Virus record (IMG/VR): IMGVR_UViG_3300045988_083449 | Coordinates: 1-64,000 of that record | Reading direction: 5' to 3' (one strand) | From: a virus | Length of the DNA stretch: 64,000 nucleotides | Shown: piece by piece, positions 27,179-50,688 of the stretch | Numbering within the stretch: the first letter of the stretch is position 1 | Layout: every line of letters starts with the position of its first letter | The notes under the pieces: model-generated | Told to the model about the DNA's origin: nothing | What the model saw: the letters and a program-made list of their open reading frames with translations, nothing else | Database searches by the model: none | Program-made: the position numbers and the translations under genes

Positions 27179-27250
27179 TTCGGAGGGTGGGACTCGAACC
27201 CACGACACACCCTTATTAAAGGCCGCTCTTGCCGACTGAGCTACCTCCGA
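27179..27250 (-). tRNA. tRNA with a non-canonical anticodon arm (loop TAATA or TTAATAA; anticodon uncertain)
   Basis: Acceptor TCGGAGG/CCTCCGA, D-arm GCTC-AGTCGGCAA-GAGC and T-arm GTGGG-TTCGAGT-CCCAC are all canonical. The anticodon region GCCTT-TAATA-AGGGT is 2 nt short of the standard 17 nt. No encoded CCA. Confidence 0.55.
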
Positions 27251-27435
27251 CCGTTCGTATTTCCTTCAACAAAATGGCGCCTGTTGCCGGTCATACAGGA
27301 CTGTCAGAGGCCAACCGACAGACCTTACACAGATGTTCGCTACACACCTGCACACCACCTCAAAAACCTACACGGACTCCGAGACACAAGCCTTGCGAGA
27401 CCTATATGTCTCGGATAGTGCAGGTCAACTCCTAG

Positions 27436-27510
27436 TGGAGCGGGTAGAGAGACTCGAACTCTCGTCAACGGCTTGGAAGGCCGTTGTTCTACCAGTTGAA
27501 CCATACCCGC
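27436..27510 (-). tRNA. tRNA-Gly (anticodon UCC), CCA encoded
   Basis: GCGGGTA TG GTTC-AACTGGTA-GAAC A ACGGC-CTTCCAA-GCCGT TGAC GAGAG-TTCGAGT-CTCTC TACCCGC T CCA. Confidence 0.9.
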
Positions 27511-27518
27511 AACAACCT

Positions 27519-27608
27519 TGGTCGGAAGGGATGGATTTGAACCACCGAGTCACCACTAGGGGAAACGGATTTACAGTCCGCCGCTTTCAACCGCTCAGCC
27601 ACCTTCCG
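27519..27608 (-). tRNA. tRNA-Tyr (anticodon GUA), bacterial type II with a long variable arm, CCA encoded
   Basis: CGGAAGG TG GCT-GAGCGGTTGAA-AGC G GCGGA-CTGTAAA-TCCGT, 18-nt variable arm, GGTGG-TTCAAAT-CCATC CCTTCCG A CCA. Confidence 0.9.
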
Positions 27609-28373: not shown

Positions 28374-30287
28374 ATGACTAGCGCTTGGTTTGATTACAGA
28401 AATCAAAGCTCACCGAATCAACATATTGCGTTCGTAACTGATCTGTCTCAGCATCAGACGGCTTTGATGAATTATCAGGACATCTCTGATCTTCTGACTG
28501 AAGATCAAGAGAGGAGACTTGTTGATTATGTGAAGGTAATCAGCGAAATGTCCTATGACTCTATCTCGAAACGTTACGACCACTGGAAGGAAAGTGACCG
28601 TGCTCACGACTTGTATGTTCCGCCGGATGCAACACGCTTCAGAAACAAGGTGGTGATTGCAGATACCCGTGCAATTAGTGACACGGTGCTGACGTACTTC
28701 ATGGCGGCTATCACCGGGCGTAATCCAATGTTCCAGCTAGAGGGGCTTAATCGAGAGTCTAGAAAGGCTTCTGCGTTGCTGGAAAGGGTACTGCACCAGC
28801 AGATGCGTAAAACTGCGGCAGACGCTCATTTAGCCATGCTCTTCCTAGATTCAATTCGGTATGGCTTCGCACCTACAAAGGTTGTGTGGTCAGACAAGCT
28901 CAACACGAACCTGCTGATCAACGCCGACCCGAGAAAGACATTCCCTGACCCGAGAGTTCAAGCAGGTGATGTGCAGAATATGCAGTTCATTGTGTTCTCC
29001 GAACACGCCTCAGGGTCAGCCTTGGTAAGAACAGGTCTCTATCCGAAGTTAATCAAATATCCTCGGATGCTTGAGAACGATATTGAATGCGCTGGTTGGA
29101 GCAGCCATACGTGGCACAAGGAGGAAGGCAATGGGTGGAATATCAATCAAACCGAGATTAACGACAGTAACGACGTGGGCTACTTCCGTGTGGGCAAGAG
29201 TCATGTCGTGGACGAAGCATGGATTGTGTTCAACGGGGCTGACATCGGTATGCCAGGACTCGGACAAGTGTGGATGGTTGTGGCGATTTTGGACGAGCGT
29301 TTCGTCATTCGTTGCCAACTTAATCCGTATGGTCAGAGCTTTCCTTGTGCGATTGGAGGATTTGGGTTCGATAGTCATAAGACACATCAGCAATCCCTTT
29401 ACGATCTGCTTTTACCTTTACATAACCTTGGCACTTGGCTGCTTCGTTCTCGCATTGACAACGTACAGTCCGCTTTAAACAACCTTATCTTCGTTGACCC
29501 GCAACGTGTAGCGGTTCACGACTTGATTAACCGAAACCCTTGGGGTGTCGTTAGAACACTTCCGGGCACAAAACCTGGAGATGGCATTCAGATTGCACAG
29601 ATACCTGACGTTACTCGTGGACATTGGCAGGATATACAGCTCTTGGGTGACATGAAGCAGAGACTTTCCGCCGCTTCTGACGCTCAACAGGGTATGCCGA
29701 CATCCGACGGCATCCGTTCCGCCACTGAAATCTCACGATTGACCCAGTTAGGTAGCCAACGACTTGGTGTTCTGTCTCGGATTATTTCTGCAACAACGAT
29801 ACGTCCTATCGTCCGAATGATGGTAAGCAACGTACAGGATGCGTTGCGTTTCAATACGTCGTTGCGAGTGTCCGAGACAGATGCCAATACGATCTTCGCT
29901 TCTATGTCTGAGGATGGTTATGTGGATATTGACCAGAATATGCTGGAAGGCGATGTTGAATACCTTGTTGTAGACGGAACACTGCCAGTTGAACCGACAC
30001 GTTCTCCTGAAACTTGGTTGCAGATTATGCAGGTTGTCGGTCAGGCAGGTATGCAGATGGAATACGACATGGGAAGATTGGTTGAAGAGTCTATCCGTGC
30101 AATGGGTGTTCCCGATATTGACCAATTCAAGATTGATCAGAAGCGTCAAGCTCGTGAAGGTCTTACTCCGTCTCAGAAGATGGCGATTATGGAGAAGATG
30201 CGAGGTCAGTCTTCCGTCATGCCGCAGGAACAAATCGAACAGGAAGTTATGAAAGGGAACCTCGTTCCCATGAAGGATGCAATGTAA
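28374..30287 (+). CDS. portal protein (putative)
   Basis: 637-aa first gene of the morphogenesis operon. Size and position are typical of portals. This is a recollection-level resemblance only and no named motif was found. Confidence 0.6.
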   Translation: MTSAWFDYRNQSSPNQHIAFVTDLSQHQTALMNYQDISDLLTEDQERRLVDYVKVISEMSYDSISKRYDHWKESDRAHDLYVPPDATRFRNKVVIADTRAISDTVLTYFMAAITGRNPMFQLEGLNRESRKASALLERVLHQQMRKTAADAHLAMLFLDSIRYGFAPTKVVWSDKLNTNLLINADPRKTFPDPRVQAGDVQNMQFIVFSEHASGSALVRTGLYPKLIKYPRMLENDIECAGWSSHTWHKEEGNGWNINQTEINDSNDVGYFRVGKSHVVDEAWIVFNGADIGMPGLGQVWMVVAILDERFVIRCQLNPYGQSFPCAIGGFGFDSHKTHQQSLYDLLLPLHNLGTWLLRSRIDNVQSALNNLIFVDPQRVAVHDLINRNPWGVVRTLPGTKPGDGIQIAQIPDVTRGHWQDIQLLGDMKQRLSAASDAQQGMPTSDGIRSATEISRLTQLGSQRLGVLSRIISATTIRPIVRMMVSNVQDALRFNTSLRVSETDANTIFASMSEDGYVDIDQNMLEGDVEYLVVDGTLPVEPTRSPETWLQIMQVVGQAGMQMEYDMGRLVEESIRAMGVPDIDQFKIDQKRQAREGLTPSQKMAIMEKMRGQSSVMPQEQIEQEVMKGNLVPMKDAM

Positions 30288-34341: not shown

Positions 34342-35604
34342 ATGGCACAACGTGCAATTGCAGGACTTCGTGGTACTGGTCAGTTTGATGAAAACACACG
34401 ACCGACCAATTGGCGTGAAACGTTTACATTGCTGGAACCGAACGGTACTGCTCCGTTGAATGCGCTTTTGTCCTTTGCTCATTCCACGCCGACAGACGAC
34501 CCGAAGTACAACCATTTCCGTGACGAACTTCCGTCTCGTGTGTTGAAGGTATCCACTGCCACAACCGATTCTGCGACATCAATTGTCGTTACCGCTGACG
34601 ACAACGTTCCGTTCGTTGTTGAAAACGCAACTCTCTACAACACCCGCACTGGTGAAGTTATGAGAGCTACGGCTGACGCCAATACTTCCACGAACACTCT
34701 TACAGTTGCTCGTGGCGCTGGTGGCTCCTCTACTAAGAAAGCTGTATCCCAGGGCGACGAACTCGTTATCATCGGCTACGCCGCAAAAGAAGGTTCTGGC
34801 AAACCGTCCGTTGCAACGTTTGACCCCACAACGGATTACAACTACACCCAGATTTTCAAGACTGGCGTTTCCATCACTGGTACTTTGAAACAGACCTATC
34901 TGCGTACTGGCGATAAAGAATCCGAAATGTTGACCAAGGCTCTTAAGAACCACATGGCTGACATTGAACGTGCATTCTTCTTTGGTCAGAGAGCAATCGA
35001 AGACGAGAACACCGCTACACCTCGTCGTTACACAGGCGGTTTGTTCTCCATGATTCCTAATGTCATTGATGCCGCTTCCGCCTTTGAAGACGAAAACGTC
35101 ATCACTGAATACGAATTTGATCGTCTGTTGATCGAAGACTTGTTCGCTTGGGGTTCTAAGGAAAAAGTCATGTTCTGTGGCCCGAGAGTTATTTCTAACC
35201 TCATGCAGATCGCAAAAAATCGTTGGCAGCCGACTGCTGTAGACAATGCTTACGGCGTTTCCTTCGCTCGTTATCACACCTTTGCAGGTGACCTGCTTGT
35301 TTATATGCACCCGCTGTTCCGTCAGATTCCGTCCATGAACTCCAACGGCATCATCCTTGATATGGATTCCCTTGGCTATCGTTACATGAACGGTCGTGAC
35401 ACAACTCTGAAACGTGACGTTCAGGCTAACGACGTGGATGCGTCCGAACACTTCTACATCACTGAATGCGGTCTTGAACTGCTTCAGGCAAAACCTCACG
35501 CCATCATCAAGAACTGGCAGAGCGTTCGTCCTCTTGCAACCAAACCGTCTGAAGGCGGAGCTGGTGGAGCTGGTAGCACTGGTGGTGCAGGTCAGGGAGG
35601 CTAA
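34342..35604 (+). CDS. major capsid protein (putative)
   Basis: 420-aa gene after the scaffold-like gene, with an AAGGAG RBS, bracketed by two terminators (typical high-expression unit). Gly-rich C-terminal tail. Confidence 0.7.
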   Translation: MAQRAIAGLRGTGQFDENTRPTNWRETFTLLEPNGTAPLNALLSFAHSTPTDDPKYNHFRDELPSRVLKVSTATTDSATSIVVTADDNVPFVVENATLYNTRTGEVMRATADANTSTNTLTVARGAGGSSTKKAVSQGDELVIIGYAAKEGSGKPSVATFDPTTDYNYTQIFKTGVSITGTLKQTYLRTGDKESEMLTKALKNHMADIERAFFFGQRAIEDENTATPRRYTGGLFSMIPNVIDAASAFEDENVITEYEFDRLLIEDLFAWGSKEKVMFCGPRVISNLMQIAKNRWQPTAVDNAYGVSFARYHTFAGDLLVYMHPLFRQIPSMNSNGIILDMDSLGYRYMNGRDTTLKRDVQANDVDASEHFYITECGLELLQAKPHAIIKNWQSVRPLATKPSEGGAGGAGSTGGAGQGG

Positions 35605-35953: not shown

Positions 35954-36367
35954 ATGGCTGAGTCGGTTTCTCCAATCTCCCCGCATATCGGTGACGGTTT
36001 AACGTCACCTTTATCTGTCCTAACAAACAGAGCTCTTCGCAGATACGGAGAGTGGAATGCATCTACCGTTGATGCAGAAACGCAGTCCTTGTTTATCGAC
36101 TTGGCTAATGAAATTGTTGATGATGTTCGTGGTCATCCGTACTGGAATAACTTTCCCGAACTTGAGTATTACGTTTCCTCTGAAGACGTAAGACCTGTTC
36201 CCGATCCCGTGATGATTGCTGGTTTGTTAGCTAAATTCGCAGTGAATCAAGGTTCTAATAAGTGGGAAAAGTACGAGAACGATTATTACCAAAGACTCAA
36301 TCAGCACCTTTATTACGGGGCCACTGGTGGCTCTATGCCTCTTAACCTTCAAGTAGTGAGACGTTAA
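35954..36367 (+). CDS. hypothetical structural protein (137 aa)
   Basis: Operonic, with a TAATG overlap with the collagen-like gene. Confidence 0.5.
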   Translation: MAESVSPISPHIGDGLTSPLSVLTNRALRRYGEWNASTVDAETQSLFIDLANEIVDDVRGHPYWNNFPELEYYVSSEDVRPVPDPVMIAGLLAKFAVNQGSNKWEKYENDYYQRLNQHLYYGATGGSMPLNLQVVRR

Positions 36368-37347
36368 TGCCGTTTGTAGATTTATCAATGCACACCGACC
36401 CCAACAGGGGAATACCGAGAGGCCCTAAGAAGGCACATCACATAACCATTATTGGTGAACGTGGTCGTCAAGGTATTCCCGGACGTGATGGCAAGGACGG
36501 TAAGGATGGCCTTCGAGGTCTTAAAGGCGATAAAGGAGACAAGGGGGATAAAGGTGATAAAGGAGATCGTGGACTTCAAGGTGAAGCCGGTGAGCAGGGT
36601 ATCCGAGGCGAGAAGGGGGATAAAGGAGACCCTGGTGCATCGTTTATCCCTAACGTATACGACATAGAAGCGAACAAGTCTAATTATGACGATCAACCTA
36701 AAGGCTTCTCGATTCTCTGTATGGATACAGGGAATGTCTACTGGAAACTCTCTGACACCTCTGGTGATTGGACGACCACTCCTCTTAGGTTCATAGGGCA
36801 GAAAGGGGACAAAGGTGATAAAGGAGACACTGGCGAAGCCGGGGTTAAAGGAGACCGAGGTTATACGGGAGCCCAAGGGCCTCGTGGTGCCACAGGTCTT
36901 CAGGGCGAGAAGGGTGAACAAGGCATCCGAGGTTTGAAAGGCGACAAAGGGGAGAAAGGGGATAAAGGCGACAAGGGTGATGTCGGAGCTTCCTTCGTTG
37001 CCTCTGCCTCCGACCTTCGTTCCGCTCGTTCCCAGTATGCAGATCAGCCTAAAGGTTTTTCTTTCCTAGCGATTGACGAAGGAAAGCTGTATTGGAAACT
37101 TTCAGACGAAGACGAGTGGTCAACGGGATTTGAGTTCGGCCCAGGAGAGAAGGGAGATAAAGGTGATAAGGGAGAAGCTGGTAAGGATGCGACAGACATT
37201 GTGTTAGACCCTGATCCTGAGGAATATTTCATGTCTATCTATGGGGTTACAGAAGGAAATGTATTGACCAGTTCTGTCACAAAGGTTGAGGCTTTAGACC
37301 CGAGTCCCTTGGAAACTTACCTAACAACGAGAGGTATTGATGACTGA
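36367..37347 (+). CDS. collagen-like triple-helix repeat fibre protein
   Basis: G-X-Y runs at aa 30-90, 144-207 and 258-272 (for example GDKGDKGDKGDKGDRGLQGEAGEQGIRGEKGDKGDPG), separated by a duplicated globular unit. Confidence 0.85.
   Translation: MPFVDLSMHTDPNRGIPRGPKKAHHITIIGERGRQGIPGRDGKDGKDGLRGLKGDKGDKGDKGDKGDRGLQGEAGEQGIRGEKGDKGDPGASFIPNVYDIEANKSNYDDQPKGFSILCMDTGNVYWKLSDTSGDWTTTPLRFIGQKGDKGDKGDTGEAGVKGDRGYTGAQGPRGATGLQGEKGEQGIRGLKGDKGEKGDKGDKGDVGASFVASASDLRSARSQYADQPKGFSFLAIDEGKLYWKLSDEDEWSTGFEFGPGEKGDKGDKGEAGKDATDIVLDPDPEEYFMSIYGVTEGNVLTSSVTKVEALDPSPLETYLTTRGIDD
36454..36636 (+). repeat. 9-bp-periodic coding repeat (G-X-Y block 1). Similar blocks lie at 36796-36987 and 37138-37182.
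   Basis: Reiterated ggngayaarggngayaar units encoding GDK triplets. Confidence 0.8.
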
Positions 37348-37747
37348 TACGGCAAATCCTAACACTCCTTACACCCTTCTTGAACAGCAATTAAATGAGA
37401 TGGCAAGAAGGATGGCCTTGGATGTCAACTCGATGGAGGAATTTGTTTCCACGGGAAAGACAGCTCTTCTCAAAGCTATAGATGACAACAAAGATGAAGT
37501 AAACACTTTTATTACCGGGAAGACTTCCGAAATAAATTCTGTGATCTCAGGTATGCAGTCTGACGCAGAGGAAGTTCTTACAGAACTACAGACCGATAAC
37601 TCAGCAGCAGTAGCCGCAATTAACACTGCGGCGGAGACACAACGAGCACAGATTCAATCACAGGTTGATAGCTTGGTTGCAGGACTTACGGGTTCTGACT
37701 ATGAGGCAGTCTTTGTTGCAGAACTGAATAAAACAGAGGAAGGGTAA
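37337..37747 (+). CDS. hypothetical coiled-coil structural protein (136 aa)
   Basis: Operonic, overlapping the upstream gene by 11 nt. Confidence 0.5.
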   Translation: MMTDTANPNTPYTLLEQQLNEMARRMALDVNSMEEFVSTGKTALLKAIDDNKDEVNTFITGKTSEINSVISGMQSDAEEVLTELQTDNSAAVAAINTAAETQRAQIQSQVDSLVAGLTGSDYEAVFVAELNKTEEG

Positions 37748-38119
37748 ATGTCAGAAACAAACATGAATGAGCAGATCATCAAGGTGGTTGGACGTATCGC
37801 AAAAGAGATGCGGAACATCGTTGCCACTGTGATGACTAAGGTGAGTACGGACGATTTCAATACAGCATTAGCGGCTAAGGCGGATGCGGCTACAACAACT
37901 GCGGCCTTGGATGGAAAAGCTGAAACTTCTGTAGTGAACTCTGCCTTAGCTTTAAAGGCCGATAAGACTGAAGTTCAACAGATTGTGGAAAGTTTAGGCG
38001 AAGGAGATTTAGCTACTAAGACCTATGTTGATACCGCAGTTGCAGGAGTTCAGGTCGGCGCCGGTTCTATCACGGCAGATAAGTTAGCTGACGTTATTGA
38101 TTTAGGAACGATTGAATAA
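37748..38119 (+). CDS. fibre-associated Ala-rich protein (123 aa)
   Basis: Repeats ALAAKADAATT / ALALKADKTEV and TKTYVDTAV, typical of fibre shafts. Confidence 0.5.
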   Translation: MSETNMNEQIIKVVGRIAKEMRNIVATVMTKVSTDDFNTALAAKADAATTTAALDGKAETSVVNSALALKADKTEVQQIVESLGEGDLATKTYVDTAVAGVQVGAGSITADKLADVIDLGTIE

Positions 38120-38481
38120 TGACAATTCGTCTTCAGCTTAAACGAGCTACCGCAACTAAGAACGACACATATACAGGTGCCGAAGGTGAGATCACTGTAG
38201 ACCTTACGAATATGAGGTTGCGAGTACATGACGGGTCTACTGCCGGTGGATACCCCGTTGCAAAAGCCGAAGATATTAAAACGAAGCTGACCGATTATTC
38301 CGACTCTCCTTACCATACGAAGACTAGTTTGACAGGATTAAGTCAACTAACGAACGACGCTGGGTATTGGTCAAAGACCTCCTTAACGAAGTTGTCGCAG
38401 TTGACCAACGACGCTGGGTATATCACTGGATACTGTTCACATTGTTCGGGATATTGCACTTACTGCACACATTGTTCATAG
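38119..38481 (+). CDS. tail-fibre-like protein with a Cys-rich C-terminus (5 Cys), paralog 1
   Basis: N-terminus LQLKRATA..GAEGEITVDLTNMRLRVHDGSTAGG (fibre N-terminal motif), 2x SLT(G/K)LSQLTNDAGY, then GYCSHCSGYCTYCTHCS. Confidence 0.75.
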   Translation: MTIRLQLKRATATKNDTYTGAEGEITVDLTNMRLRVHDGSTAGGYPVAKAEDIKTKLTDYSDSPYHTKTSLTGLSQLTNDAGYWSKTSLTKLSQLTNDAGYITGYCSHCSGYCTYCTHCS

Positions 38482-38488
38482 GAGAGTA

Positions 38489-38956
38489 ATGACAACACTT
38501 CAGTGGAAAAGAGGAACGACTGAGAAGGTTGAAGGATACGCTGAGACCGCTCTTGAGGGAGAGCTGGTCGTTGACACTGCGACTCATAGGGTGAGTGTGT
38601 ATGACGGCGCAGGAGGAAGAAACGAAATTCCTCTTCTCTCTGATGTCAAAACAACTCTCGCTTCCTTAACGAATGATATTAGTGCTTGGAGTAAGAGTGA
38701 TTTAACCAAGGTAAGTCAGTTAAGTAATGATTTAGATTTTTGGTCAAGCGGAACACTTAGCAAGGTAAGCCAGTTACAAAACGATAGTGGCTTTAAGACG
38801 GGGTACTGTACGCATTGCCAATATTGTCAGCACTGTCAGCAGTGTAGTAATTGTCATAACTGCAACACCACACAATGTACAACTGTCAATTGCTCCATTC
38901 AACATTGCCTAGTGATCTATTGTCTGTGCAATTGTGATTGCACTGACGATAGTTGA
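38489..38956 (+). CDS. tail-fibre-like protein with a Cys-rich C-terminus (14 Cys), paralog 2
   Basis: GGAGAG RBS. LQWKRGT..LEGELVVDT..HRVSVYDG. SKVSQL(S/Q)ND repeats. Tail GYCTHCQYCQHCQQCSNCHNCNTTQCTTVNCSIQHCLVIYCLCNCDC. Confidence 0.75.
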   Translation: MTTLQWKRGTTEKVEGYAETALEGELVVDTATHRVSVYDGAGGRNEIPLLSDVKTTLASLTNDISAWSKSDLTKVSQLSNDLDFWSSGTLSKVSQLQNDSGFKTGYCTHCQYCQHCQQCSNCHNCNTTQCTTVNCSIQHCLVIYCLCNCDCTDDS

Positions 38957-38968
38957 TAGTTAAAAGAT

Positions 38969-39550
38969 ATGAAAACAACTCAGTTAGAAAATGCGGCAAA
39001 AGTTCAGTTAGTTAGAGGAAGTAACGAAGCCACTTCCGCCCTATCAGGGTTGGAAGGAGAGGTGGTTTTAAACCTTACAGATTTAAGTTTAAAAATAAAT
39101 GATGGGGCGGCTCAAGGTTGGGTTGCTACGGCCTCTAATCAATTGGCGGCTCTTTCTCAGCTAGTGGATTCTGACTCAATTTGGACATCAACAACTTTAG
39201 CCAAAGTAAGTCAACTCGCAAACGATTCTCAATTTTGGAAAAAATCTGAATTAACAAAAGTAAGTCAGTTAGAAAACAACAGCGGGTACAAGACTGGTTA
39301 CTGTACTTACTGTTCCCACTGTACTTATTGTCAAAAATGCAGCCGCTGCAATAACGTGCAATGTAGTCAGGTTCAATGTGGAAACTGCAATCACTGTACA
39401 CAATGTTTTAAATGTCGGAGCACCGGAAACTGCGGGGACTCAGTTGTTAACTGTGGTCAATGTCATTGCTCGTATTACTGCAATGGTTATTGCTCAGATT
39501 GCACATACGTTCACTGTGTTTCCGATTGCATAAATCAACTAAACCAGTAA
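38969..39550 (+). CDS. tail-fibre-like protein with a Cys-rich C-terminus (21 Cys), paralog 3
   Basis: VQLVRGS..LEGEVVLNLTD..LKINDG. (A/T)KVSQL(A/E)N(D/N)S repeats. Tail GYCTYCSHCTYCQKCSRCNNVQC...CVSDC. Confidence 0.75.
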   Translation: MKTTQLENAAKVQLVRGSNEATSALSGLEGEVVLNLTDLSLKINDGAAQGWVATASNQLAALSQLVDSDSIWTSTTLAKVSQLANDSQFWKKSELTKVSQLENNSGYKTGYCTYCSHCTYCQKCSRCNNVQCSQVQCGNCNHCTQCFKCRSTGNCGDSVVNCGQCHCSYYCNGYCSDCTYVHCVSDCINQLNQ

Positions 39551-39561
39551 TAGGAGACAAT

Positions 39562-40455
39562 ATGGGTTATTCAAGACATGTTATTTGTCAAAGTGAAATT
39601 CCTTTCGTGATGAATATTGTCATCAATGATGACTCTATAGCTTTCAGGCTGCTGTCTGAAATTAATGAAAGCGTAAACGTAGCGACTGATGCAGTTCAGT
39701 TTGGGGTGGAAAAGTTACTAACAACGGAACAGCTCTCTTTTAATCCAGTGGCTTTCAACGTGAATGACAAAACGTTTTTAGTTGACGGAACAGAGTATGC
39801 CATCTACTCGGAGTTAATCTTTAATCGTGAAGATACTACGTATAACCGCCTACTTGTACCGGGAGCTCACTTTTGTTTTTGGTTGGATTTAAGCCGCCAC
39901 CCTCGACTGTGCTTAGATGTTCGTGGAACGATGACTTATTTCAATCAGAGAAACACTGCTGAGTTGATAAAAGCGAAAGGCGGTCTTTGGCTGTTTGACT
40001 TTTGGATTCGTAATCCAGAAGACTCTTTCAAACAATGTAATCGTTCGATTACTACTTCGGTAACTACAAAACTTATTACCAACATAGATGACCTCGGGGA
40101 AGAGTGGGCTGCCGAAGATGTGATGACAGGCACTACCTCTAAGTGGTTGAACTTGGCGTATGAGTTAACGCCGAACAAAACAGAGGTTGAACCTGAAGGC
40201 TGGGTTACATTCACTCTAAAAGTCCTTGACGGAAAGACTAAGGAGTTAGCGACTGATGTTACATATGACGGATATATTGTGGAGGCTGTCGATGGTTATG
40301 CGCCTCACAAGCGTGTGAATGTCGTTGACGGAATTGGAACCTTCAAAGTAAAGGCTTTCGGCTTGGAAAATGGAGATAAGCTGCGAGTCAAGATTAACCA
40401 ACGTTTTTATACATCTCGAGTTGAAGCAACGGTTGATGTCGTATCGCCAACTTAA
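39562..40455 (+). CDS. hypothetical protein with an Ig-like C-terminal domain (297 aa from ATG 39562)
   Basis: AGGAG RBS before 39562. The C-terminal region GWVTFTLKVLDG...VNVVDGIGTFKVKAFGLENGDKLRVKI looks like a bacterial Ig-like (Big) beta-sandwich. Confidence 0.55.
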   Translation: MGYSRHVICQSEIPFVMNIVINDDSIAFRLLSEINESVNVATDAVQFGVEKLLTTEQLSFNPVAFNVNDKTFLVDGTEYAIYSELIFNREDTTYNRLLVPGAHFCFWLDLSRHPRLCLDVRGTMTYFNQRNTAELIKAKGGLWLFDFWIRNPEDSFKQCNRSITTSVTTKLITNIDDLGEEWAAEDVMTGTTSKWLNLAYELTPNKTEVEPEGWVTFTLKVLDGKTKELATDVTYDGYIVEAVDGYAPHKRVNVVDGIGTFKVKAFGLENGDKLRVKINQRFYTSRVEATVDVVSPT

Positions 40456-41419
40456 CATTATGTTCGGTAGTGCCTGTGATATGAAGTGCGGGTACTGCCT
40501 TCAAACAAACGGTTTATCCCCAGCTGATAAGAAAGCAGATGCACAAGAGTTTGTGCAAAAGTTACTGCCGCACTTAAACGGTCAGACTCCTAAAAAAATA
40601 ATGTATTGGGGCGGAGAGCCGATGCTTTATTGGGAGAGGATAAAAACTATTCATTCCCTCCTATCTGAAAATGGAATTGTTCCAAGTCAATCTGTAATCA
40701 CTACTAACGGAAGAAGGCTGACAGAAAGCTATGTGGACTATGCGAATAGTCATGAAGATATATGGACAACCGTTTCCTGTCATGGCTGGGATTTCACGGA
40801 TAAACAGTTAGAGACGATCTTTAAACTTAAGCGCTTCTCTCTGTCTGAACTTGTGCACCACTTCCGAACAGACCTATGGGAAATACGGGACAGGTACTAC
40901 GAAATCAAAGATAAGTTCGGGGTTTCGCCCAATCTGTGTGTGCACTTTCTCAGAGCTAACGATGGGTGTAATACAGCCTACTACATGACTAAAGAGGATG
41001 TGGATAAGTTCTGCGACCACATTCGTACTGAAGTAATCCCAATGGCTAGGCTAGGAGATGAATGGGCGCAATGGCAGTGTTCCCAACTCTTATTTGAACG
41101 AGACCGCATAATCGCCAAAGGCATTGGCCCTTTATGCGTAAGAAGCGATCAGCTATCCATTGACCTTCACGGCAATGTGTACAACTGCCATCACAATTAC
41201 TGCAAGACAAACATTGTGAGAAACGTTTTTGAAAAAGTAATACCAATTCAAAAAGCAGATTCATTATGTGGTTCTAGGTTTTTTAATTCCGAGGAATGCC
41301 AGTCTTGTGAATTATTAGAGCAGTGCAGAGGTGGCTGCTACACCTCTAATACACACGAGGTTGATTGTTACTTCGCAAAGGAAAGGGCAAAACTTTACGA
41401 GATTATGGAGAGACGATGA
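40436..41419 (+). CDS. radical SAM enzyme with a SPASM domain (maturase type), paralog A
   Basis: CDMKCGYC (Cx3Cx2C), YWGGEPMLY, ITTNG, IDLHGNVYNC, and an exact SPASM signature CQSCELLEQCRGGC (Cx2Cx5Cx3C). The alternative start at 40460 cannot be excluded. Confidence 0.85.
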   Translation: MSYRQLNIMFGSACDMKCGYCLQTNGLSPADKKADAQEFVQKLLPHLNGQTPKKIMYWGGEPMLYWERIKTIHSLLSENGIVPSQSVITTNGRRLTESYVDYANSHEDIWTTVSCHGWDFTDKQLETIFKLKRFSLSELVHHFRTDLWEIRDRYYEIKDKFGVSPNLCVHFLRANDGCNTAYYMTKEDVDKFCDHIRTEVIPMARLGDEWAQWQCSQLLFERDRIIAKGIGPLCVRSDQLSIDLHGNVYNCHHNYCKTNIVRNVFEKVIPIQKADSLCGSRFFNSEECQSCELLEQCRGGCYTSNTHEVDCYFAKERAKLYEIMERR

Positions 41420-42669
41420 AGTTAAAGTTGCATTGCAAAACGCATGACGGCAAACAGGAAGACTGGATTTACGACAACGTAACAAACGAGATTTGGAACA
41501 GTAATGGAGATTTAGTCGATCTATCTAAAGATGAAAGACTGAAGCCTTATGCGATGACAAAGCAACGAGAAAAACCTTCACCAGTTTCTAATCACAAGTC
41601 CAATGAGATTTGGAACTTAAAGATTCAGTTAGGCCTTAAGTGCAATATGCATTGCAAGTATTGCGCACAAACTGGAAACGAAATCGGAGCTTCTGTTTTC
41701 ACTCAGCGAGATGTCGAACCGTTTATCAAGAAACTCGTTGACAATAAGATCGAGGCTGTTGGCTCCATTGAACTATGGGGCGGAGAGCCCTTTGTCTATT
41801 GGAAAGTCCTTCAAAAGTTGATCCCTGAACTTAGAAGAATTTATCCCAAAGTGTCAATCGGGATGATCACAAACGGAACCCTCCTAACAGAAGAGAAGAT
41901 TGAGTTCTTAGAAAAATATAAGTGCGGACTTACCTTCTCTCATGACGGACTTGGTTTTCACCTTCGTGGCAAAGACCCGTTGGACGACCCGAAGATGGTT
42001 GACCTTTGGAGGTTGGCAATTCAGAAACTCGGTGCAAACATCAACTGCGTACTCACTCCTGCAAATATAGACATTAACGCAACGGCGGAGTACATCCGGG
42101 AGAAACTTGGAGGAGTTTATTTCAACTTTGAAGGCGTGATGACCCACGTAGGTGTTCAGGATTCCGAGTTAATGTTTACACCAGCTCAGATGCTCACGCT
42201 TCAGAAAAACATCTTTAACGAACTAACTAAGAATGGTTGGGATAAATTCCCAGCACTGACGAATGAATGTAACGAACTGCTCTTGCAACTGACTCAGAGA
42301 AAGAAGTTAGACCTTGGTACAGTTAAATGCGGAATGAATCGAGAAAACGTTTGTGCAATTAACCTCAACGGAGATGTTCTTTCGTGTCACGACTTTGCGA
42401 CAAAGGAAAAGTACGTTGGTCATATATCTGCAATGGGTAAAGTAGATATTTCCAAACACTTTAAGTCTTGCGGCGAAAGAGAGAAGTGCCGAAAGTGTTT
42501 GCTTCTGTCCATGTGCCGTGGTGCCTGTCCTCAGATAGAAGGACTCGCTCGAACACTGACGTGTAAGAACGAGTTCAACTATCACTTCGCTATTTTTCAG
42601 GCTGTGTGGTGGCTGCTGTTTGGTTTGACTATTGAGAGTTACGAGACTTTAAGTTGTCACTTGCAGTAG
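41416..42669 (+). CDS. radical SAM enzyme with a SPASM domain (maturase type), paralog B, with an ~80-aa N-terminal extension
   Basis: ATGA coupling to paralog A. CNMHCKYC, LWGGEPFVY, MITNG, INLNGDVLSC, and SPASM CRKCLLLSMCRGAC. Confidence 0.85.
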   Translation: MKLKLHCKTHDGKQEDWIYDNVTNEIWNSNGDLVDLSKDERLKPYAMTKQREKPSPVSNHKSNEIWNLKIQLGLKCNMHCKYCAQTGNEIGASVFTQRDVEPFIKKLVDNKIEAVGSIELWGGEPFVYWKVLQKLIPELRRIYPKVSIGMITNGTLLTEEKIEFLEKYKCGLTFSHDGLGFHLRGKDPLDDPKMVDLWRLAIQKLGANINCVLTPANIDINATAEYIREKLGGVYFNFEGVMTHVGVQDSELMFTPAQMLTLQKNIFNELTKNGWDKFPALTNECNELLLQLTQRKKLDLGTVKCGMNRENVCAINLNGDVLSCHDFATKEKYVGHISAMGKVDISKHFKSCGEREKCRKCLLLSMCRGACPQIEGLARTLTCKNEFNYHFAIFQAVWWLLFGLTIESYETLSCHLQ

Positions 42670-43013
42670 AGTTTTCGGACGATATCGGACGGAGAGTCGG
42701 GAACAATAGGCATCCATCCTTCCGTCGAAACATCTAATCTAAATTGTGGGGAACCCTGTGCGTTAAACCCATTATGAACATATGCAGAATCCACTTTGAA
42801 GTACTGTTTTTTGCAATCGACCAAGACGTGGTCTTTTACAGAAACACCTCTTTGGGGTATGTTTGTGACACTCCAATATCCAATCTTATTCTTAGTGATG
42901 GAATTAACAGAAATAAGTTTGGTTTGTGGGCCAAGTTGCATAAGCTCTTTTCCAATAACTAGATTACTGAATAAGAAACACGAGAGACAGAGTAGTATCT
43001 TTAAAGATTTCAT
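42657..43013 (-). CDS. small secreted protein, paralog family member 1
   Basis: Signal peptide MKSLKILLCLSCFLFSNLVIG. Conserved ...VDCK ... PDSP....V.KLYCK. Confidence 0.6.
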   Translation of the reverse strand: MKSLKILLCLSCFLFSNLVIGKELMQLGPQTKLISVNSITKNKIGYWSVTNIPQRGVSVKDHVLVDCKKQYFKVDSAYVHNGFNAQGSPQFRLDVSTEGWMPIVPDSPSDIVRKLYCK

Positions 43014-43031: not shown

Positions 43032-43442
43032 TTATTTAGGTAGTCGCTTACATAACACATCGGCAAACACTCTCACCATATTGCTCTTATCGGGAGACAT
43101 TGCTGACCATCGTTTTACAATATTCGGGCCATCGAGACTTATGCAATTTTTACCCATCTCTTTAGAACAGTAGTAGAGAGAGTCGATAGTAAATCTTTTA
43201 GTTCGACAGTTAGCTAAAAAGTAAACTTTTTTTGATTTGAATTTTTTTCCTGATAGTTCCTCTTCTATATTTAACAACATCCACCAACCGACAATATCTG
43301 GACTTTCTCTCACCTCCGATCCTTTTACGTAAAAGTCGGTTTCAGACATTTGAAGTAAATCTTCAATCTCTTGAGATTGGGCTAAGGAGGTGAAGGAGAG
43401 GGTGATAATAGAAATGAGAGTTAATTTTATAAATTTAAGCAT
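43032..43442 (-). CDS. small secreted protein, paralog family member 2
   Basis: Signal peptide MLKFIKLTLISIITLSFTSLAQS. Conserved ...LANCR ... SPDKS..V..F..VLCKRL. Confidence 0.6.
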   Translation of the reverse strand: MLKFIKLTLISIITLSFTSLAQSQEIEDLLQMSETDFYVKGSEVRESPDIVGWWMLLNIEEELSGKKFKSKKVYFLANCRTKRFTIDSLYYCSKEMGKNCISLDGPNIVKRWSAMSPDKSNMVRVFADVLCKRLPK

Positions 43443-45077: not shown

Positions 45078-46589
45078 ATGATTCGTTCCGTTCCATCTTC
45101 TAAAACATCCAAGCTCATGTACGGGGGCTTTACTGGCTTAGATACAAGCCGAAGTGAAGTCGTACATGAGGTCAATGAACATCAGCCTTTTGCTAATGTG
45201 AATAACGCATACATAGATTGGAGTGGCTACGTTTCTAACGAACGAGCGATTGAAAGAATCGGTAAGGAAGGACGGTACATTTCCCATGTTCGCTTTGCGT
45301 ACAACGGAGAGATTCTGTACGCCACAAGAGGAGAACAGAGCATAAGTATTTGGAACTCTCGTGAGCTAGAGAGCGGAAGGAATGAGTCCAAGATTGTTTT
45401 CCCTACGAACACGATCACCTCTACATTATCTAACGGCGAAGTCGTCTTTTGTGCAGGAGAGGCACCTTATCGTTATGTTGCTCAAGAATGGAAAAGGATT
45501 GACTCCCCTGACGCATACGGTGCGACCTTATGTGCGTCCGTGTCAGGACGCTTGGCTTTAGCCGGATTTAAAAATGCTCCCACGGTTGTTCGTTTCTCTC
45601 GTGTGGACGACAACGAAATCTTTGAATGCGACGAAGATGTTGCAGATATTCAGGTAACAAAGGCTGGAGGCATCAACCTTAAGACTGTGCTCAATAGAGC
45701 AGAAACGATTACAGCTTTGTTCCCCTTCGGTGCGAATCAGCTTCTTATCTTTACGAATGCTCGTTGTCTCATCTATGAGATCAATGCGGATTTGACCACA
45801 TGGAAGCAGGTTTCGGACGTTCATATCTATGTCGGCTGTGTGTCTCAGAACTCTATCTGCGGTTGGGCAAACGAGGTTATCTTCTGTAGCCGTTACGGTA
45901 TTTACACGCTTAAGCGTTCTGTGGCAAACGGTACGGCTCTTGTGGTCTTGCCTTATTCGCATAAGGTACAAAGCGTTTATCAAGAACTGCTTTCTCGGTT
46001 GGAAGACCCGAGACTAATCAACGCAGTCTTTGATTCAGATTGTGGTCGTTATCACATATTTTTCCCGTTAAGTCCACGAGGAGCTTCACGGCTTTCCTGC
46101 TCAGTCTCTCCAGTTGCTCAAGAAGAGGGAAGCTCGGGTTCTCCATCGTGGTCTTTTTCCGAATACGGCAATCTAACGTGCGGAGACTTTCTAGATGGAA
46201 AGTTACTTATGGGCAGTTGCGGTGGTATTTGGAGAATGAAATCCGAGTACGAGGAAGGAGGAGATATCGGAGAGGCAGTCTTCTCAACTCCTTTGCTTTG
46301 GATGAACGAACGTTTTATGCCTAAGCGTGGTCATCAGATCGGAATCATTGCCGACGGGGCTGGTCAGATAGAAGTTGAGATTGAAAACGAAGAAGGACAG
46401 ATATTGGATGTCCTTCGTTGGGACTTGCCCTATGAAGATCAATCGGTATTTCACGGAACTCGAAAGGGCAGACAGTTCACTCGAATTTTTCCCCATTTAT
46501 TTACAGGCGTAAAGCTCACCTTCCATATACGGAACGTGACCAAGAGCTTACGTATTTACGGATTCACTATCGAAATTAAGGAGCAATAA
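45078..46589 (+). CDS. hypothetical virion structural protein (503 aa)
   Basis: Large ORF in the tail/fibre region, co-oriented. No motif recognised. Confidence 0.55.
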   Translation: MIRSVPSSKTSKLMYGGFTGLDTSRSEVVHEVNEHQPFANVNNAYIDWSGYVSNERAIERIGKEGRYISHVRFAYNGEILYATRGEQSISIWNSRELESGRNESKIVFPTNTITSTLSNGEVVFCAGEAPYRYVAQEWKRIDSPDAYGATLCASVSGRLALAGFKNAPTVVRFSRVDDNEIFECDEDVADIQVTKAGGINLKTVLNRAETITALFPFGANQLLIFTNARCLIYEINADLTTWKQVSDVHIYVGCVSQNSICGWANEVIFCSRYGIYTLKRSVANGTALVVLPYSHKVQSVYQELLSRLEDPRLINAVFDSDCGRYHIFFPLSPRGASRLSCSVSPVAQEEGSSGSPSWSFSEYGNLTCGDFLDGKLLMGSCGGIWRMKSEYEEGGDIGEAVFSTPLLWMNERFMPKRGHQIGIIADGAGQIEVEIENEEGQILDVLRWDLPYEDQSVFHGTRKGRQFTRIFPHLFTGVKLTFHIRNVTKSLRIYGFTIEIKEQ

Positions 46590-48134: not shown

Positions 48135-50680
48135 TGGCAACCAACAACGACTCCAACTGGGTAACAATCAATGGTGGTAAGTTTCCTGCCACCATTGGCG
48201 AGGAGTTTATTAACACTTGGGGCAAGTGGGAAACTGAAGGTTACAACGGCTTCAAGTTCAATGATTCACAGGCTACTTGGCAGGACTCCCAGTACAACGG
48301 TTCCTTTAGAGATTATGTCGGCATCAATAGTGACAAAAATATGCTCTATTGGATGAAGGGCAACTATGGCGACAAAAAGAAAGACTTTGACTTCAACGCT
48401 TGGGCTGATGCTCACCCTGATGAATATAAGGACTACAGAGACGAGAACGGAACTTGGTATCTAACCCCGGAAGGTAAGACTGACCTTGAAGGAAGGGCTT
48501 ACACACAGTGGTTAAAAGAGCAGAAGTATGACGTTAACAACACCAACCCAGTTGTCCAAATTAAGACTGGAAAGAAAGAAGGGACACAAGTTACATATAA
48601 ATGGGACGAGTCTCTAAATGCTTACGTTCCTCACGAAGGTAAGGTTGTCTATTGGGATACTAGCAGTGGTCTTGGTCACGCTCTAAAGTCTTTTGGCTCT
48701 GCCATTGCAACGGGTATTGCCTCCTACTTTGGAGGCCCTTGGGCTGGAGCAGCAGTAGGTGCTGCTTCAGGACTAATCACTTCTGAGGGTGATAACAAAC
48801 TCCTTGACGCTGGTATGGGAGCTCTCGGTGGTTACATGGGTGGAGCAAACATGGCAGGAAATATCGGCGCCACAATTGGTGGCTCTGCCATTAAAGGAAT
48901 AACTAAGAACGCTCTTCCCGATCTTGTTTTGAACATGGTTCAGACCGAGAGCGATCCAGGGAACCTTGCAGGAATCGTTAATCAATGGAAGGTTGAGAAC
49001 GGTAAAACAGCAGGTACAAGACCATTGACTGATGCTGAAACTGCGTTAATCAATCAATACGTTAATAACGCGAAGACTCTCTATCCATCGTTGTCGGAAG
49101 ATCAAACAAAGAAGTTGGCTGATTACGCTGAGACTCTGACCCGAATGGGTTTATTCACAGAAGACACCGTTACCCAAAAGAATGATCAATGGCAACAGCT
49201 AAAGGAAGCTCTTGAGAAGTATCAGACCAACACTTCTCTCGGCAACGGAGGAAGCACAAACCTTGGAAACTCAATATCCAAAGATGTTCAGGACAAACAA
49301 GAAACAGCAGAAAAGACACTGCTCGGAGTGCTTGGCGGTACAGCTCTCTTAGGCGGATTAGGAAATATAGGACAGACAAGTATGGCAGATACAAACAACT
49401 TACTAAGCTCTCTCGCAGGGCTAGGAGCAGATGGCTTTAGAGTTTATCGAGGATACAGAGACTCGGGTAAATTCAACGATTTATTTAACCAGTGGAGTGG
49501 TACGGCTGGTTCTCTTGTTAATAACGGACAGAACTTAGCCAACTCTCTTCAGAATCTTTACGACAAGACGGCCGATGGGAATGACAAACTCTACGAGGCT
49601 CTTAAGGAAAAGATTAAAGTTCCGACTCGGAACGGAGATGAATGGCAGTCAACACCGTACTATCAAACTGCAACCCAAGGTTCTGAGAATGTCAACAACG
49701 CATTCGCAAAAGCATTGAATGCGGCAGATCAAATCAGCGGAGTGTACAACGACCTCGGTAAAGCTAAGTTCTACAACGAAGATGACGTGTACGGAATGTA
49801 TCGCAAGTTTGCGAACGCTCGTACACAGTTGGCTGATAGAGCTGCGGCCTTGACAGACTCAAGAACGTATGCGGCTAACCGTGCAAATGGTGTCGGAACA
49901 TCTACGGTACAGCAGGAAGCTCAGGCAGAGAATGCCCGTAAGTACATGGCAGACCTTGCCAATATTGATAGCCAGGCTTACAGTGATGCTCTCAGCTACG
50001 TCTCCAACCTTTCTAAGTTGCAGACAGACCAGCGTAATGCGGCTATTGCTGAAGCGGTCAATGCGTTATCTCCGACAATCTCAACATCTACAAACGATGC
50101 GACAAACCAACTCCGTAACTCTCAGAATGAAATCGGAGCTTTGTGGTACGGGGATAAGGCGGCTGATCTTGAACGTGGTTGGTTGGCTAATACCTACGGC
50201 ATTGGTTTGCAGAATCAAGGCAATATTCTTAACGCTCTAGTTGGTTTAAATTCCAACAACGTAAACGCCGCTACTAATCTCGCTAGTGGATTCGCAGGAG
50301 CATACGGACAGGCAATCAATGGATTAGGTCAAGCCTTAAATAAGACAACAGCAGACTTGTCTTCAGGTACAGGAGGCGGTTTACTTCAGGCGCTAGGACT
50401 TGCAGGTAAAGCATCAGGTCTTTCCGGACTTTTCGATGGAATCAACTACGCAGGAGCTAATGCTGCGGCTGATTCTTGGAATGCATTGGTTGAAAGAACT
50501 GCATCACAAACGGGAACATCCTTAGAAGAAGCGGCGAAATGGTTGATGAATGCTGGTGGTGACCCAATTGAAGAAATCATTAACGCCTCTGAGAGCGGAG
50601 GTTTTTGGTCGGGAATCGGCGACTCCATTTCTAGCGGTTGGGATTCACTAACCAATTGGTTTAGCGGACTGTGGTCGTAG
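48134..50680 (+). CDS. large internal-virion/ejection-type protein (848 aa) with a Gly-rich hydrophobic segment
   Basis: Contains GIASYFGGPWAGAAVGAASGLI...GMGALGGYMGGANMAGNIGATIGG. Precedes the SLT-domain and giant proteins. Confidence 0.55.
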   Translation: MATNNDSNWVTINGGKFPATIGEEFINTWGKWETEGYNGFKFNDSQATWQDSQYNGSFRDYVGINSDKNMLYWMKGNYGDKKKDFDFNAWADAHPDEYKDYRDENGTWYLTPEGKTDLEGRAYTQWLKEQKYDVNNTNPVVQIKTGKKEGTQVTYKWDESLNAYVPHEGKVVYWDTSSGLGHALKSFGSAIATGIASYFGGPWAGAAVGAASGLITSEGDNKLLDAGMGALGGYMGGANMAGNIGATIGGSAIKGITKNALPDLVLNMVQTESDPGNLAGIVNQWKVENGKTAGTRPLTDAETALINQYVNNAKTLYPSLSEDQTKKLADYAETLTRMGLFTEDTVTQKNDQWQQLKEALEKYQTNTSLGNGGSTNLGNSISKDVQDKQETAEKTLLGVLGGTALLGGLGNIGQTSMADTNNLLSSLAGLGADGFRVYRGYRDSGKFNDLFNQWSGTAGSLVNNGQNLANSLQNLYDKTADGNDKLYEALKEKIKVPTRNGDEWQSTPYYQTATQGSENVNNAFAKALNAADQISGVYNDLGKAKFYNEDDVYGMYRKFANARTQLADRAAALTDSRTYAANRANGVGTSTVQQEAQAENARKYMADLANIDSQAYSDALSYVSNLSKLQTDQRNAAIAEAVNALSPTISTSTNDATNQLRNSQNEIGALWYGDKAADLERGWLANTYGIGLQNQGNILNALVGLNSNNVNAATNLASGFAGAYGQAINGLGQALNKTTADLSSGTGGGLLQALGLAGKASGLSGLFDGINYAGANAAADSWNALVERTASQTGTSLEEAAKWLMNAGGDPIEEIINASESGGFWSGIGDSISSGWDSLTNWFSGLWS

Positions 50681-50688
50681 GAGTAGAC

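Follow-up and report, generated by a model that had tools for sequence, protein, structure and literature searches.

Conserved cysteine arrays at the ends of phage fibre-like proteins and their possible stapling by adjoining radical SAM enzymes

The 64,000-nt stretch of viral DNA analysed here (the window; IMG/VR record IMGVR_UViG_3300045988_083449) carries three tandem genes, P1, P2 and P3, for fibre-like proteins whose C-terminal tails are conserved arrays of regularly spaced cysteines, and these genes are followed directly by a further gene, ORF4, and by two genes for radical S-adenosylmethionine (SAM)/SPASM enzymes, rSAM A and rSAM B. We propose, with a probability of about 0.45, that the enzymes staple the fibre tips by forming thioethers from the tail cysteines, a chemistry like that of peptides made on the ribosome and then modified after translation (RiPPs). 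More broadly, and at the same level of belief, the cassette would represent a widespread and undescribed maturation system, composed of a B-type and an A-type rSAM/SPASM enzyme and an ORF4-like beta/immunoglobulin (Ig)-like protein, that cross-links Cys arrays located distally on surface-recognition proteins, including several unrelated fibre types and a protein exported by the twin-arginine (Tat) pathway. That tails and enzymes are functionally coupled appears very probable; if they are, a thioether product is an even bet or slightly better. Coordinates are positions in the window unless another locus is named, and the six genes of the cassette are as follows.

38119-38481, + strand: P1, 120 amino acids; Mtd_N domain and a pair of L(T/S)KLSQLTND repeats; period-3 tail of 5 Cys (codons 38434-38475)
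38489-38956, + strand: P2, 155 amino acids by translation; 14-Cys tail (Cys codons 38807-38941)
38969-39550, + strand: P3, 193 amino acids by translation; 21-Cys tail (Cys codons 39302-39529)
39562-40455, + strand: ORF4, 297 amino acids; start MGYSRHV, ribosome-binding site TAGGAGACAAT
40436-41419, + strand: rSAM A, 327 amino acids, without N-terminal extension; radical SAM/SPASM enzyme
41416-42669, + strand: rSAM B, 417 amino acids, with an N-terminal extension of ~70 residues; start MKLKLH overlaps the rSAM A stop

An earlier note on this DNA had described a graded series of 5, 14 and 21 Cys in three paralogues between 38434 and 39529. Translation of the + strand open reading frames gave the same counts, and that range begins exactly with the codon of the first Cys in P1 and ends with that of the last Cys in P3. 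All of the Cys residues are confined to the C-terminal tails, none lying before residue 106 in P1, 107 in P2 or 112 in P3. The five in P1 (residues 106, 109, 113, 116 and 119 of the translation) are separated by gaps of 3, 4, 3 and 3. P2, which has a good Shine-Dalgarno sequence at its start (TAGGAGAGTA-ATG), shows six gaps of 3, four of 5 and three of 2, bearing out the description of seven period-3 Cys followed by C-x4-C spacing and a CLCNCDC end; its tail runs from CTHCQYCQHCQQCSNCHNC through NTTQC TTVNC SIQHC LVIYC to CLCNCDC-TDDS and the stop, with seven Cys at period 3, four more at period 5, and the Cys-every-fifth stretch at residues 125, 130, 135, 140 and 145. The gaps of P3 are five of 3, then 5 and 5, then four of 3, then irregular, and the runs of six and five period-3 Cys noted previously were found at residues 112-127 and 137-149. 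Of the three proteins P3 varies most, and it aligns in register with P1 and P2.

The regularity of the two longer tails is not what chance would produce in Cys-rich proteins. When each tail was permuted 200,000 times with its own Cys-rich composition kept, the run of six gap-3 spacings in P2 was reached in only 12 shuffles and the run of five in P3 in 174, so that both lie far above the shuffled expectation; the period-3 run of P1 is not significant by itself, as 14,812 of the 200,000 shuffles reach it. In a set of 56 distinct tails taken from related loci, successive Cys are 3 residues apart 389 times, 5 apart 204 times and 2 apart 61 times, other values being rare, and the arrays follow a grammar of three units: C-[ST]-[YHNQR] at period 3, C-[TN]-[TQ]-[VI]-[QNHK] at period 5 and C-[DN]-C at period 2, with C-[GT]-D-D-[GSN] closing most of the tails. 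The units are ordered along the tail, period 3 passing into period 5, then into C-[DN]-C and finally into the acidic C-x-D-D. Cys makes up 27% of the tail residues, followed by T, N, Q, S, Y, V and H, and L, F, M, W, A and E are nearly absent. The spacers had been said to be almost only T, S, H, Q, N and Y, which is mainly so, although V and I also occur in the period-5 part; similarly, the period-3 runs are real, but the strict 3-residue period that had been described is one part of the conserved grammar 3, 5, 2 and C-x-D-D. These shifts of period are evidence against a single collagen-like rod geometry, and such a geometry was rejected for the tails, in which the periodic residue is Cys rather than Gly (~3%).

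Homologues of P2 form 24 clusters in public data, reaching down to ~40% identity and including one named "MAG TPA: major tropism determinant [Caudoviricetes sp.]", and in their alignment the Cys columns vary little or not at all; the family's consensus tail is KTGHCTYCTHCTYCQQCSNCHNCTTxNCTTVNCTTVxC....C..CNCxCxDDx. Between the window and the IMG/VR relative L008, the P1 and P2 proteins are 92-94% identical and the Cys codons show four synonymous and no non-synonymous changes, while 7 of the 9 non-synonymous changes in P2 fall in the second half of its tail. Because the Cys columns are invariant in the 24 homologues and the Cys codons change synonymously only, we judge from these comparisons that P1-P3 are real genes under selection; with synteny conserved as well, untranslated or chance reading frames were ruled out. 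The rise from 5 to 14 to 21 Cys, previously ascribed to stepwise duplication and expansion, is not recent, since P1, P2 and P3 constitute an old set of paralogues that is kept in relatives at 35-50% identity. The periodicity is not a tandem repeat of the DNA itself, in which Tandem Repeats Finder gave just weak period-9 arrays of 2-4 copies, and with this weak signal and the trio conserved, recent tandem duplication of the tails was ruled out.

A profile search of the PDB with the tail found no relative of known structure. No match was returned by tblastn of P3 against phages, by megablast of 20000-44000 against 50,697 phage records, or by a word-indexed protein search with the consensus tail, which has too few exact words in common with real sequences; distant-mode blastn of 36000-43000 against the same phage records matched a collagen repeat and nothing else. 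An exhaustive tail-profile search of 1.84 billion representative proteins (E <= 0.001) gave only 46 matches, many of them low-complexity junk, which marks the system as rare. The long (CSAVQ)n and (CNAMQ)n "proteins" (P0072, P0076, P0077, P0079-P0081 and others) were discarded, since they appear to be simple DNA repeats in translation and have nothing to do with the phage system; such matches call for caution when Cys-every-fifth patterns are mined.

The part of P1-P3 that precedes the arrays agrees with the earlier expectation of a fibre-like, trimerising protein. P1 matches Pfam Mtd_N (PF18454) at 8.2e-9 and 35.7 bits, above the cutoff of 26.3, and matches the phrog_9648 tail protein; P2 reaches 21.1 bits, under the Mtd_N cutoff, and P3 has no direct match but aligns with P1 and P2. 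The profile of the P1-P3 family matches PDB entries 1yu0-1yu4, residues 3-70 of the BPP-1 Mtd trimer, at 1e-6. Two or three L(T/S)K[VL]SQLxND repeats follow the Mtd_N domain, the spacing from the last repeat to the first Cys is always 7 residues, and the first Cys stands at residue 103-108 in all three paralogues of nearly all relatives, the exceptions having internal insertions, so that the arrays start in register. The three proteins of the window, with their 5, 14 and 21 Cys, could make up a single heterotrimer with a cross-linked tip that narrows from three chains to two and then one. In each of the 34 close IMG/VR loci, and in four further loci from metagenomes or genomes, the P1 orthologue is a 120-residue protein with 5 Cys; in locus L018 a 120-residue P1 gene was called as well.

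The radical SAM enzymes that had been mentioned alongside the tails are encoded by two genes directly downstream (40436-42669). rSAM A has a CX3CX2C motif at residues 14-21 and the SPASM motifs CX9-15GX4C and CX2CX5CX3C; rSAM B has CX3CX2C at residues 76-83 and a full SPASM motif. The SPASM domain model TIGR04085 scores the two enzymes at 36.1 and 34.3 bits (cutoff 27), and Pfam Radical_SAM scores rSAM B at 50.8 bits (cutoff 29.5) and rSAM A at 28.0, just under; rSAM A also matches Pfam Fer4_12. By motif and profile, both enzymes belong to the radical SAM/SPASM superfamily, and they share 25% identity. Narrower families match far below their cutoffs: PapB (NF047865, cutoff 340 bits), the best family of both enzymes, at 87.3 for rSAM B and 59.2 for rSAM A, the SCIFF maturase (TIGR03974, cutoff 425) at 67.3 and 43.2, HxsC (TIGR03977, cutoff 268) at 31.8 and 28.4, and the anaerobic sulfatase maturase (TIGR03942, cutoff 349) at 60.5 and 33.3, together with, for rSAM B, the nif11-like peptide maturase (74.6 against 518.7), CefB (NF038107; 61.4 against 600), QhpD (56 against 453, aligned along the whole length of the model) and HxsB (TIGR03978; 47 against 370). 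The top NCBIfam families of rSAM B are PapB, SCIFF, CefB, QhpD and GggB, with the nif11-like peptide maturase and the anaerobic sulfatase maturase ranking in between, and as judged from these profiles they are mostly thioether formers or maturases of Cys-rich peptides. The closest sequence in the PDB is CteB (5wgg, 3.6e-11) for rSAM B, and SuiB and CteB for rSAM A. rSAM B is also ~29% identical to the rSAM proteins gp030 of Achromobacter phage JWF and gp045 of Ralstonia phage RSP15, each of which is encoded beside fibre genes.

The strongest argument for regarding the tails as substrates of these enzymes is linkage. The gene order P1-P2-P3-ORF4-rSAM A-rSAM B is found in 34 of 34 close IMG/VR loci, in Logan and European Nucleotide Archive contigs and in a Parasutterella metagenome-assembled genome; every complete related locus consists of the same six genes, and a short contig of Mesosutterella porci holds the first five before it ends. 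The earlier suggestion that the Cys might be thioether donors fits this very tight linkage, which extends over about 40 loci and several unrelated substrate architectures, the chemistry itself being deduced.

In other phages the arrays terminate fibres of 250-480 residues. Beside distant enzymes, fibres of 410 residues end in CRCDCACDCDCGDDNCSE / YNCRCDCACDCDCGDDNCSE, a 249-residue protein ends in CSYCSYCSYCCRDCCDDCGDDGMY / TYCSYCSYCSYCCRDCCDDCGDDGMY and further fibres end in CNCNCNCTCK / YNYNCNCNCNCTCK; gp048 of phage RSP15 ends in NTNCQCGN. In JWF gp028 (L001:3811-5262) a Hint domain (Pfam Hom_end_hint, 3e-12) comes straight after the array CNCDCNCNCSC / RQNCNCDCNCNCSC. Small proteins of 84-113 residues, which matched no peptide family in NCBIfam, have about eight CTT[VI][NDQ] units and end in C[RK]DDAN, and in the one such locus looked at they adjoin B-like, ORF4-like (two copies) and A-like genes. 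Two bacterial contigs (L016:1833-14932, ERZ27273442; L017:103-12323, SRR12234944) encode a Tat-signal protein whose end (CNCNCSSNCCNCGDDSR or CNCDCNCCDDNG) is a CxC array with C-x-D-D, followed by Hint-like sequence; here the order is a Cys-rich TraN-like protein (1333-1384 residues), the Tat-signal protein, then an ORF4 homologue and rSAM genes, of which there are five per locus, with clear A-like and B-like orthologues among them. Since the proteins encoded upstream of the distant enzymes share just the Cys array, the array would be the substrate.

JWF gp028 has, besides, a match above cutoff to Pfam Shufflon_N (5.3e-7), the constant region in PilV adhesins of conjugative thin pili; this is a further link of these fibres to conjugation adhesins, and L016 and L017 are F-type conjugation loci, TrbC and a signal peptidase being encoded nearby in L017. 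Cassettes of the RSP15 type have one or two more conserved genes after the ORF4-like gene, without a Pfam match (L003:1866-2696, which is RSP15 gp046; L061:6261-7831; L063:6249-7819), encoding ~276-289 residues in all three loci and 234 residues in L061 and L063. In RSP15 the first of them, gp046, sits directly between the ORF4-like gene and the rSAM gene; this first extra gene type shows an H-x-D...H-like pattern and might specify a cupin or a hydroxylase. In a Logan contig (L012:11267-12519) the B-like rSAM was called as two genes of 161 and 235 residues, a possible frameshift, pseudogene or assembly error.

Hint-like sequence is also present within the close family, as an extension of the P2 orthologue in L014 and L018, where it begins past CTDD[SG], and of the P3 orthologue in L012, L018 and L022. 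The domain starts with C[FL][VI]SG after C[TG]DD[SG], and its Pfam match is weak (Hint_2, E = 0.0025). P2 of the window ends at CTDDS, the point at which the Hint-like domain of L014 begins, so that self-cleavage by Hint would leave the same mature C-terminus.

The two enzyme types separate cleanly into orthogroups by BLAST and differ in distribution. The B type is present at every locus and in every architecture compared, whereas the A type occurs in every architecture with a C-x-D-D array end and in no other; JWF, RSP15 and L063, whose arrays are without this end, show the B type alone over the stretch that was examined. The tracking of the A type with C-x-D-D suggests that rSAM A may act on the acidic terminus, possibly by a PapB-like Cys-Asp reaction, and rSAM B on the arrays, a division of labour proposed by analogy and from a small sample.

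ORF4 homologues always adjoin rSAM genes, and the family (46 homologues) has no Pfam domain. The AlphaFold2 model of ORF4 (pLDDT, the predicted local distance difference test score, 90.5) is beta-rich with a C-terminal Ig-like domain. In Foldseek comparisons with the PDB this domain alone finds matches (intimin and alpha-2-macroglobulin domains), the N-terminal part being without a match, and in BFVD the whole fold matches uncharacterised phage proteins only. ORF4 would have one of two roles, as partner to the matured tails or as a specificity factor. Divergence along the cassette bears on this choice: between the window and IMG/VR phage L005, identity is 92% for P1, 68% for P2, 45% for P3, 42% for ORF4, 79% for rSAM A and 97% for rSAM B. 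The trough shared by P3 and ORF4 suggests for ORF4 the role of a partner to the tail and not merely that of a helper of the enzymes, and from its sequence divergence the pair looks like a host-range cassette. A sharp drop of identity across 38969-40455 is seen in comparison with L005, L006 and L008, and the segment has the look of a hot spot of recombination or diversification such as typifies host-range determinants.

In the scheme that we propose, P1-P3 would each consist of a trimerising Mtd-type N-terminal domain, SQLxND repeats and a C-terminal Cys array that serves as substrate, and ORF4, rSAM A and rSAM B, encoded directly downstream, would form a maturation module that acts in the cytoplasm before virion assembly. 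Many of the Cys residues would be converted to thioethers of the sactionine or ranthionine type, linked to nearby T, S, N, Q, D, Y or H of the same or of another chain; the thioether is the likeliest product to judge by analogy with the nearest enzyme families. At its distal end the fibre would then form a rod or knot that is stapled covalently and is resistant to redox change and to proteases. The B-type enzyme would be the universal core of the system, and the A-type enzyme may form a PapB-like Cys-Asp link at the acidic end; ORF4 would present the substrate or, as a host-contacting partner, dock on the matured tail, and in some relatives the Hint domain would cleave itself off and bare the C-x-D-D carboxy-terminus.

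A number of considerations lower our confidence in thioether stapling. The covalent chemistry is deduced from sequence, and the enzymes resemble thioether-forming families only weakly, scoring 59-87 bits where the cutoffs are 340-600. Other outcomes of SPASM enzymes include C-C and C-O bonds, epimerisation and formylglycine. In the characterised SCIFF peptide only one link has been demonstrated, and with 14-21 Cys in a tail perhaps not all would be thioether donors. The hosts of JWF and RSP15 are aerobes, in which oxygen-labile rSAM enzymes are less expected. Foldseek against the PDB revealed no recognisable RiPP recognition element or peptide-binding fold in ORF4, and the correlation between the A enzyme and C-x-D-D covers about eight architectures only. 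The AlphaFold2 monomer model of P2, built from 19 sequences, is confident only for Mtd_N (residues 1-50), with a pLDDT of 30-40 in the tail, although a monomer model cannot represent a trimeric, cross-linked or metal-bound form, and this one speaks neither for a rod nor against it. Finally, P1-P3 appear to be virion-fibre-like proteins, and their incorporation into the particle is presumed from domain homology and gene position.

The same substrates and enzymes might be joined by another chemistry, for example aromatic-to-C-beta cyclophanes, conversion of Cys to formylglycine, or epimerisation, leaving the thiols free for metals or disulfides. Read in a shifted frame, the array becomes [YH]-C-[TSQ], an aromatic-X-X triplet like those of triceptides or His-Xaa-Ser repeats; the residue before Cys 2-4 is always Y or H, and the P1 tail of L012 is (HCT)4-HCS. 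The invariant position, however, is Cys rather than the aromatic, which is replaced by Q, N, R or K in later triplets and is lacking from the period-5 and period-2 parts. The enzymes speak on both sides: SuiB, among the closest PDB sequences of rSAM A, is a C-C bond former, and both proteins weakly match HxsB, HxsC, YhhB and FxsB too, but cyclophane families score below thioether-forming and Cys-rich-peptide families, and the C/S-x-P/A-x-R substrate motif of anaerobic sulfatase maturases is absent from the tails. In the HXS system, two rSAM enzymes are coupled with a period-3 repeat protein and the +8 Da product is not a thioether (PMC13128918). On balance we regard this alternative as unlikely, and somewhat more so the proposal that the arrays are ligands for metals or Fe-S clusters, with no covalent cross-link, and that the rSAM enzymes act elsewhere or assist cluster insertion. 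Three chains would then stack layers of thiolates on the fibre axis, as a Cys analogue of the HxH iron needle of T4 gp37, and the period-5 part would form a coil like that of pentapeptide repeats with the central Cys inward. Metal ions on fibre axes are well known, as in T4 gp37 and gp12. The tails offer 27% Cys in CxxC and CxC spacing, with no adjacent CC in those of the window, V-N-C-T-T agrees with the pattern of pentapeptide repeats, [STAV][DN][LF][STR]X, Cys taking the central place, and the twin-arginine signal of the TraN-neighbour protein is typical of exports that bear cofactors or are prefolded. Yet ligation of metal leaves the constant adjacency of two or more rSAM/SPASM genes unexplained; Pfam gives no pentapeptide or metallothionein match, Tyr and His are abundant in the tails, unlike in classical metallothioneins, and the tail has no relative of solved structure.

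A disulfide-rich knot that forms after lysis, with the rSAM genes serving an unrelated function such as modification of nucleotides, cofactors or host metabolism, strikes us as improbable. Extracellular Cys-rich proteins are usually disulfide-bonded, and some phage rSAM genes, for example those of Campylobacter phages, lie away from fibre genes; nevertheless, the linkage described here persists over very different genomes and substrate architectures, a conjugation locus included, SPASM enzymes overwhelmingly modify peptides or proteins, and the distant relatives in Parasutterella and Mesosutterella come from gut bacteria. The gut habitat of these genera is presumably reducing and poor for disulfide stability. 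We give still less credence, amounting to very little, to the notion that P1-P3 are precursors of secreted RiPP-type toxins or signals, in which Mtd_N and the repeats would be a long leader and the Cys-rich peptide would be released. The relatives of 84-113 residues do resemble a leader and core, and the enzymes match RiPP maturases, but the cassette has no protease or exporter, the N-terminus is formed by a structural fibre domain with homology to the Mtd trimer, the arrays of other phages end fibres of 250-480 residues, and the genes lie within a structural module.

The cassette is positioned between head and tail genes, and its surroundings include the following features.

36367-37347, + strand: collagen-like (G-X-Y) fibre protein, Pfam Collagen 7.3e-22; context, outside the Cys-array module
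37748-38119, + strand: upstream fibre-segment gene, 123 amino acids, ending VIDLGTIE and abutting P1; weak tail-fibre PHROG match
28374-30287: portal, upstream of the cassette
34342-35604: major head protein, upstream of the cassette
45078-46589: weak tail-protein PHROG match, downstream of the cassette
50671-53241: lytic-transglycosylase (SLT) protein, virion-protein-like, downstream of the cassette

The first of these is the collagen-like gene that the earlier note had placed upstream. The gene directly upstream of P1 always encodes a protein with [IV]DLGx[IL].. at its end, while the remainder differs (VIDLGTIE, IVDLGSITD, TVDLGGLS and TIDLGELS; window 37748-38119, L011:7232-7519, L014:5818-7614 and L015:121-459), and this end may be a docking motif for Mtd_N proteins. 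Directly after the rSAM genes lies a pair of small lipoprotein-like genes with signal peptides (42657-43013 and 43032-43442, both on the - strand; Pfam Adhesin_E, 3.9e-8 and 2.1e-7), which resembles moron or lysogenic-conversion genes. A single open reading frame of 3349 amino acids (53318-63367, + strand), with no Pfam match at E <= 0.001, recalls by size alone giant podovirus virion proteins such as the N4-type virion RNA polymerase. Three tRNA genes, for Ile (unusual anticodon AAT), Gly-TCC and Tyr-GTA, are found at 27179-27608 on the - strand.

If thioether stapling is correct, it would be the first RiPP-type chemistry on virion structural proteins, extending radical SAM RiPP chemistry beyond small secreted peptides, and it would define a new stabilising principle for receptor-binding fibres, in which redox-insensitive staples replace disulfides. 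It would also provide a new enzyme-substrate family with a simple, programmable grammar, useful for the stapling of peptides and proteins, tie phage fibres to the TraN-neighbour protein of conjugation loci through one maturation module, and flag P3 and ORF4 as a host-range cassette that diverges while the enzymes stay constant. Cultivable relatives exist in Achromobacter phage JWF and Ralstonia phage RSP15.

Comparison with known systems sets the arrays apart from the structural repeats that they superficially resemble. They lack the Gly at every third residue of a collagen triple helix; the composition and the CxC and CxxC spacing fit a metallothionein, whereas 7% Tyr, 4% His and the lack of a Pfam match do not, and to the pentapeptide repeat (PF00805) there is just the pattern resemblance of V-N-C-T-T, with no Pfam match at E <= 0.01. 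The tip of the T4 long tail fibre, gp37, is an HxH iron needle, a short-period array of metal ligands at the distal end of a trimeric fibre; its ligands are His rather than Cys, there is no sequence homology, and T4 has no dedicated rSAM enzymes. In the sactipeptide thurincin H, four Cys at an exact period of 3 are the thioether donors for a radical SAM/SPASM enzyme. Thurincin H, however, is a bacteriocin of 31 residues with a hairpin acceptor half, whereas here up to seven period-3 Cys are borne by a fibre protein with no obvious acceptor half.

Closer likenesses are provided by the SCIFF or ranthipeptide pair CteA/CteB and by PapA/PapB (freyrasin), which likewise combine a radical SAM/SPASM maturase with a C-terminal Cys-rich sequence having T, S, Q and N as spacers; in addition, the acidic C-x-D-D end of the tails recalls the Cys-X3-Asp targets of PapB, although only this terminal motif is present and not a repeated CX3D. 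A SCIFF precursor has ~45 residues and six C-terminal Cys, whereas the present proteins have 120-193 residues, an Mtd_N domain, 5-21 Cys and no NCBIfam match, and the system differs from both pairs in its phage-encoded substrates, which extend to fibres of ~480 residues, its period 3/5/2 grammar, its two enzymes and ORF4, and its location in a structural module. Residues 125-145 of P2 and many relatives share the Cys-every-fifth pattern of CefB, CcpM (Cys-rich peptide) and TIGR04463, which also involve radical SAM/SPASM enzymes, for which no published chemistry was found in the full-text literature; the enzyme is far under the CefB cutoff and the substrate feature is found in part only. The SPASM enzyme QhpD installs several Cys thioethers in QhpC, the gamma subunit of quinohemoprotein amine dehydrogenase, in the cytoplasm before export and assembly; the present case differs in having no quinone cofactor context and another substrate architecture. 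A search of the searchable full-text literature, which leaves subscription-only papers uncovered, found no description of rSAM-matured Cys arrays in phage fibres or virions. The nearest precedent for the maturation of a repeat protein by radical SAM enzymes is the HXS defence system (HxsA-D), in which two such enzymes and an accessory protein mature a whole protein with tandem period-3 HxS repeats (PMC13128918). The array described here, with its frame shifted, reads H/Y-C-T/S; its repeats are nonetheless centred on Cys, and the HXS protein is a bacterial anti-phage effector exported to the periplasm, not a fibre. What would be novel in the present cassette is the setting, in which the known pairing of a radical SAM/SPASM enzyme with a Cys-rich substrate would be met in virion fibres.

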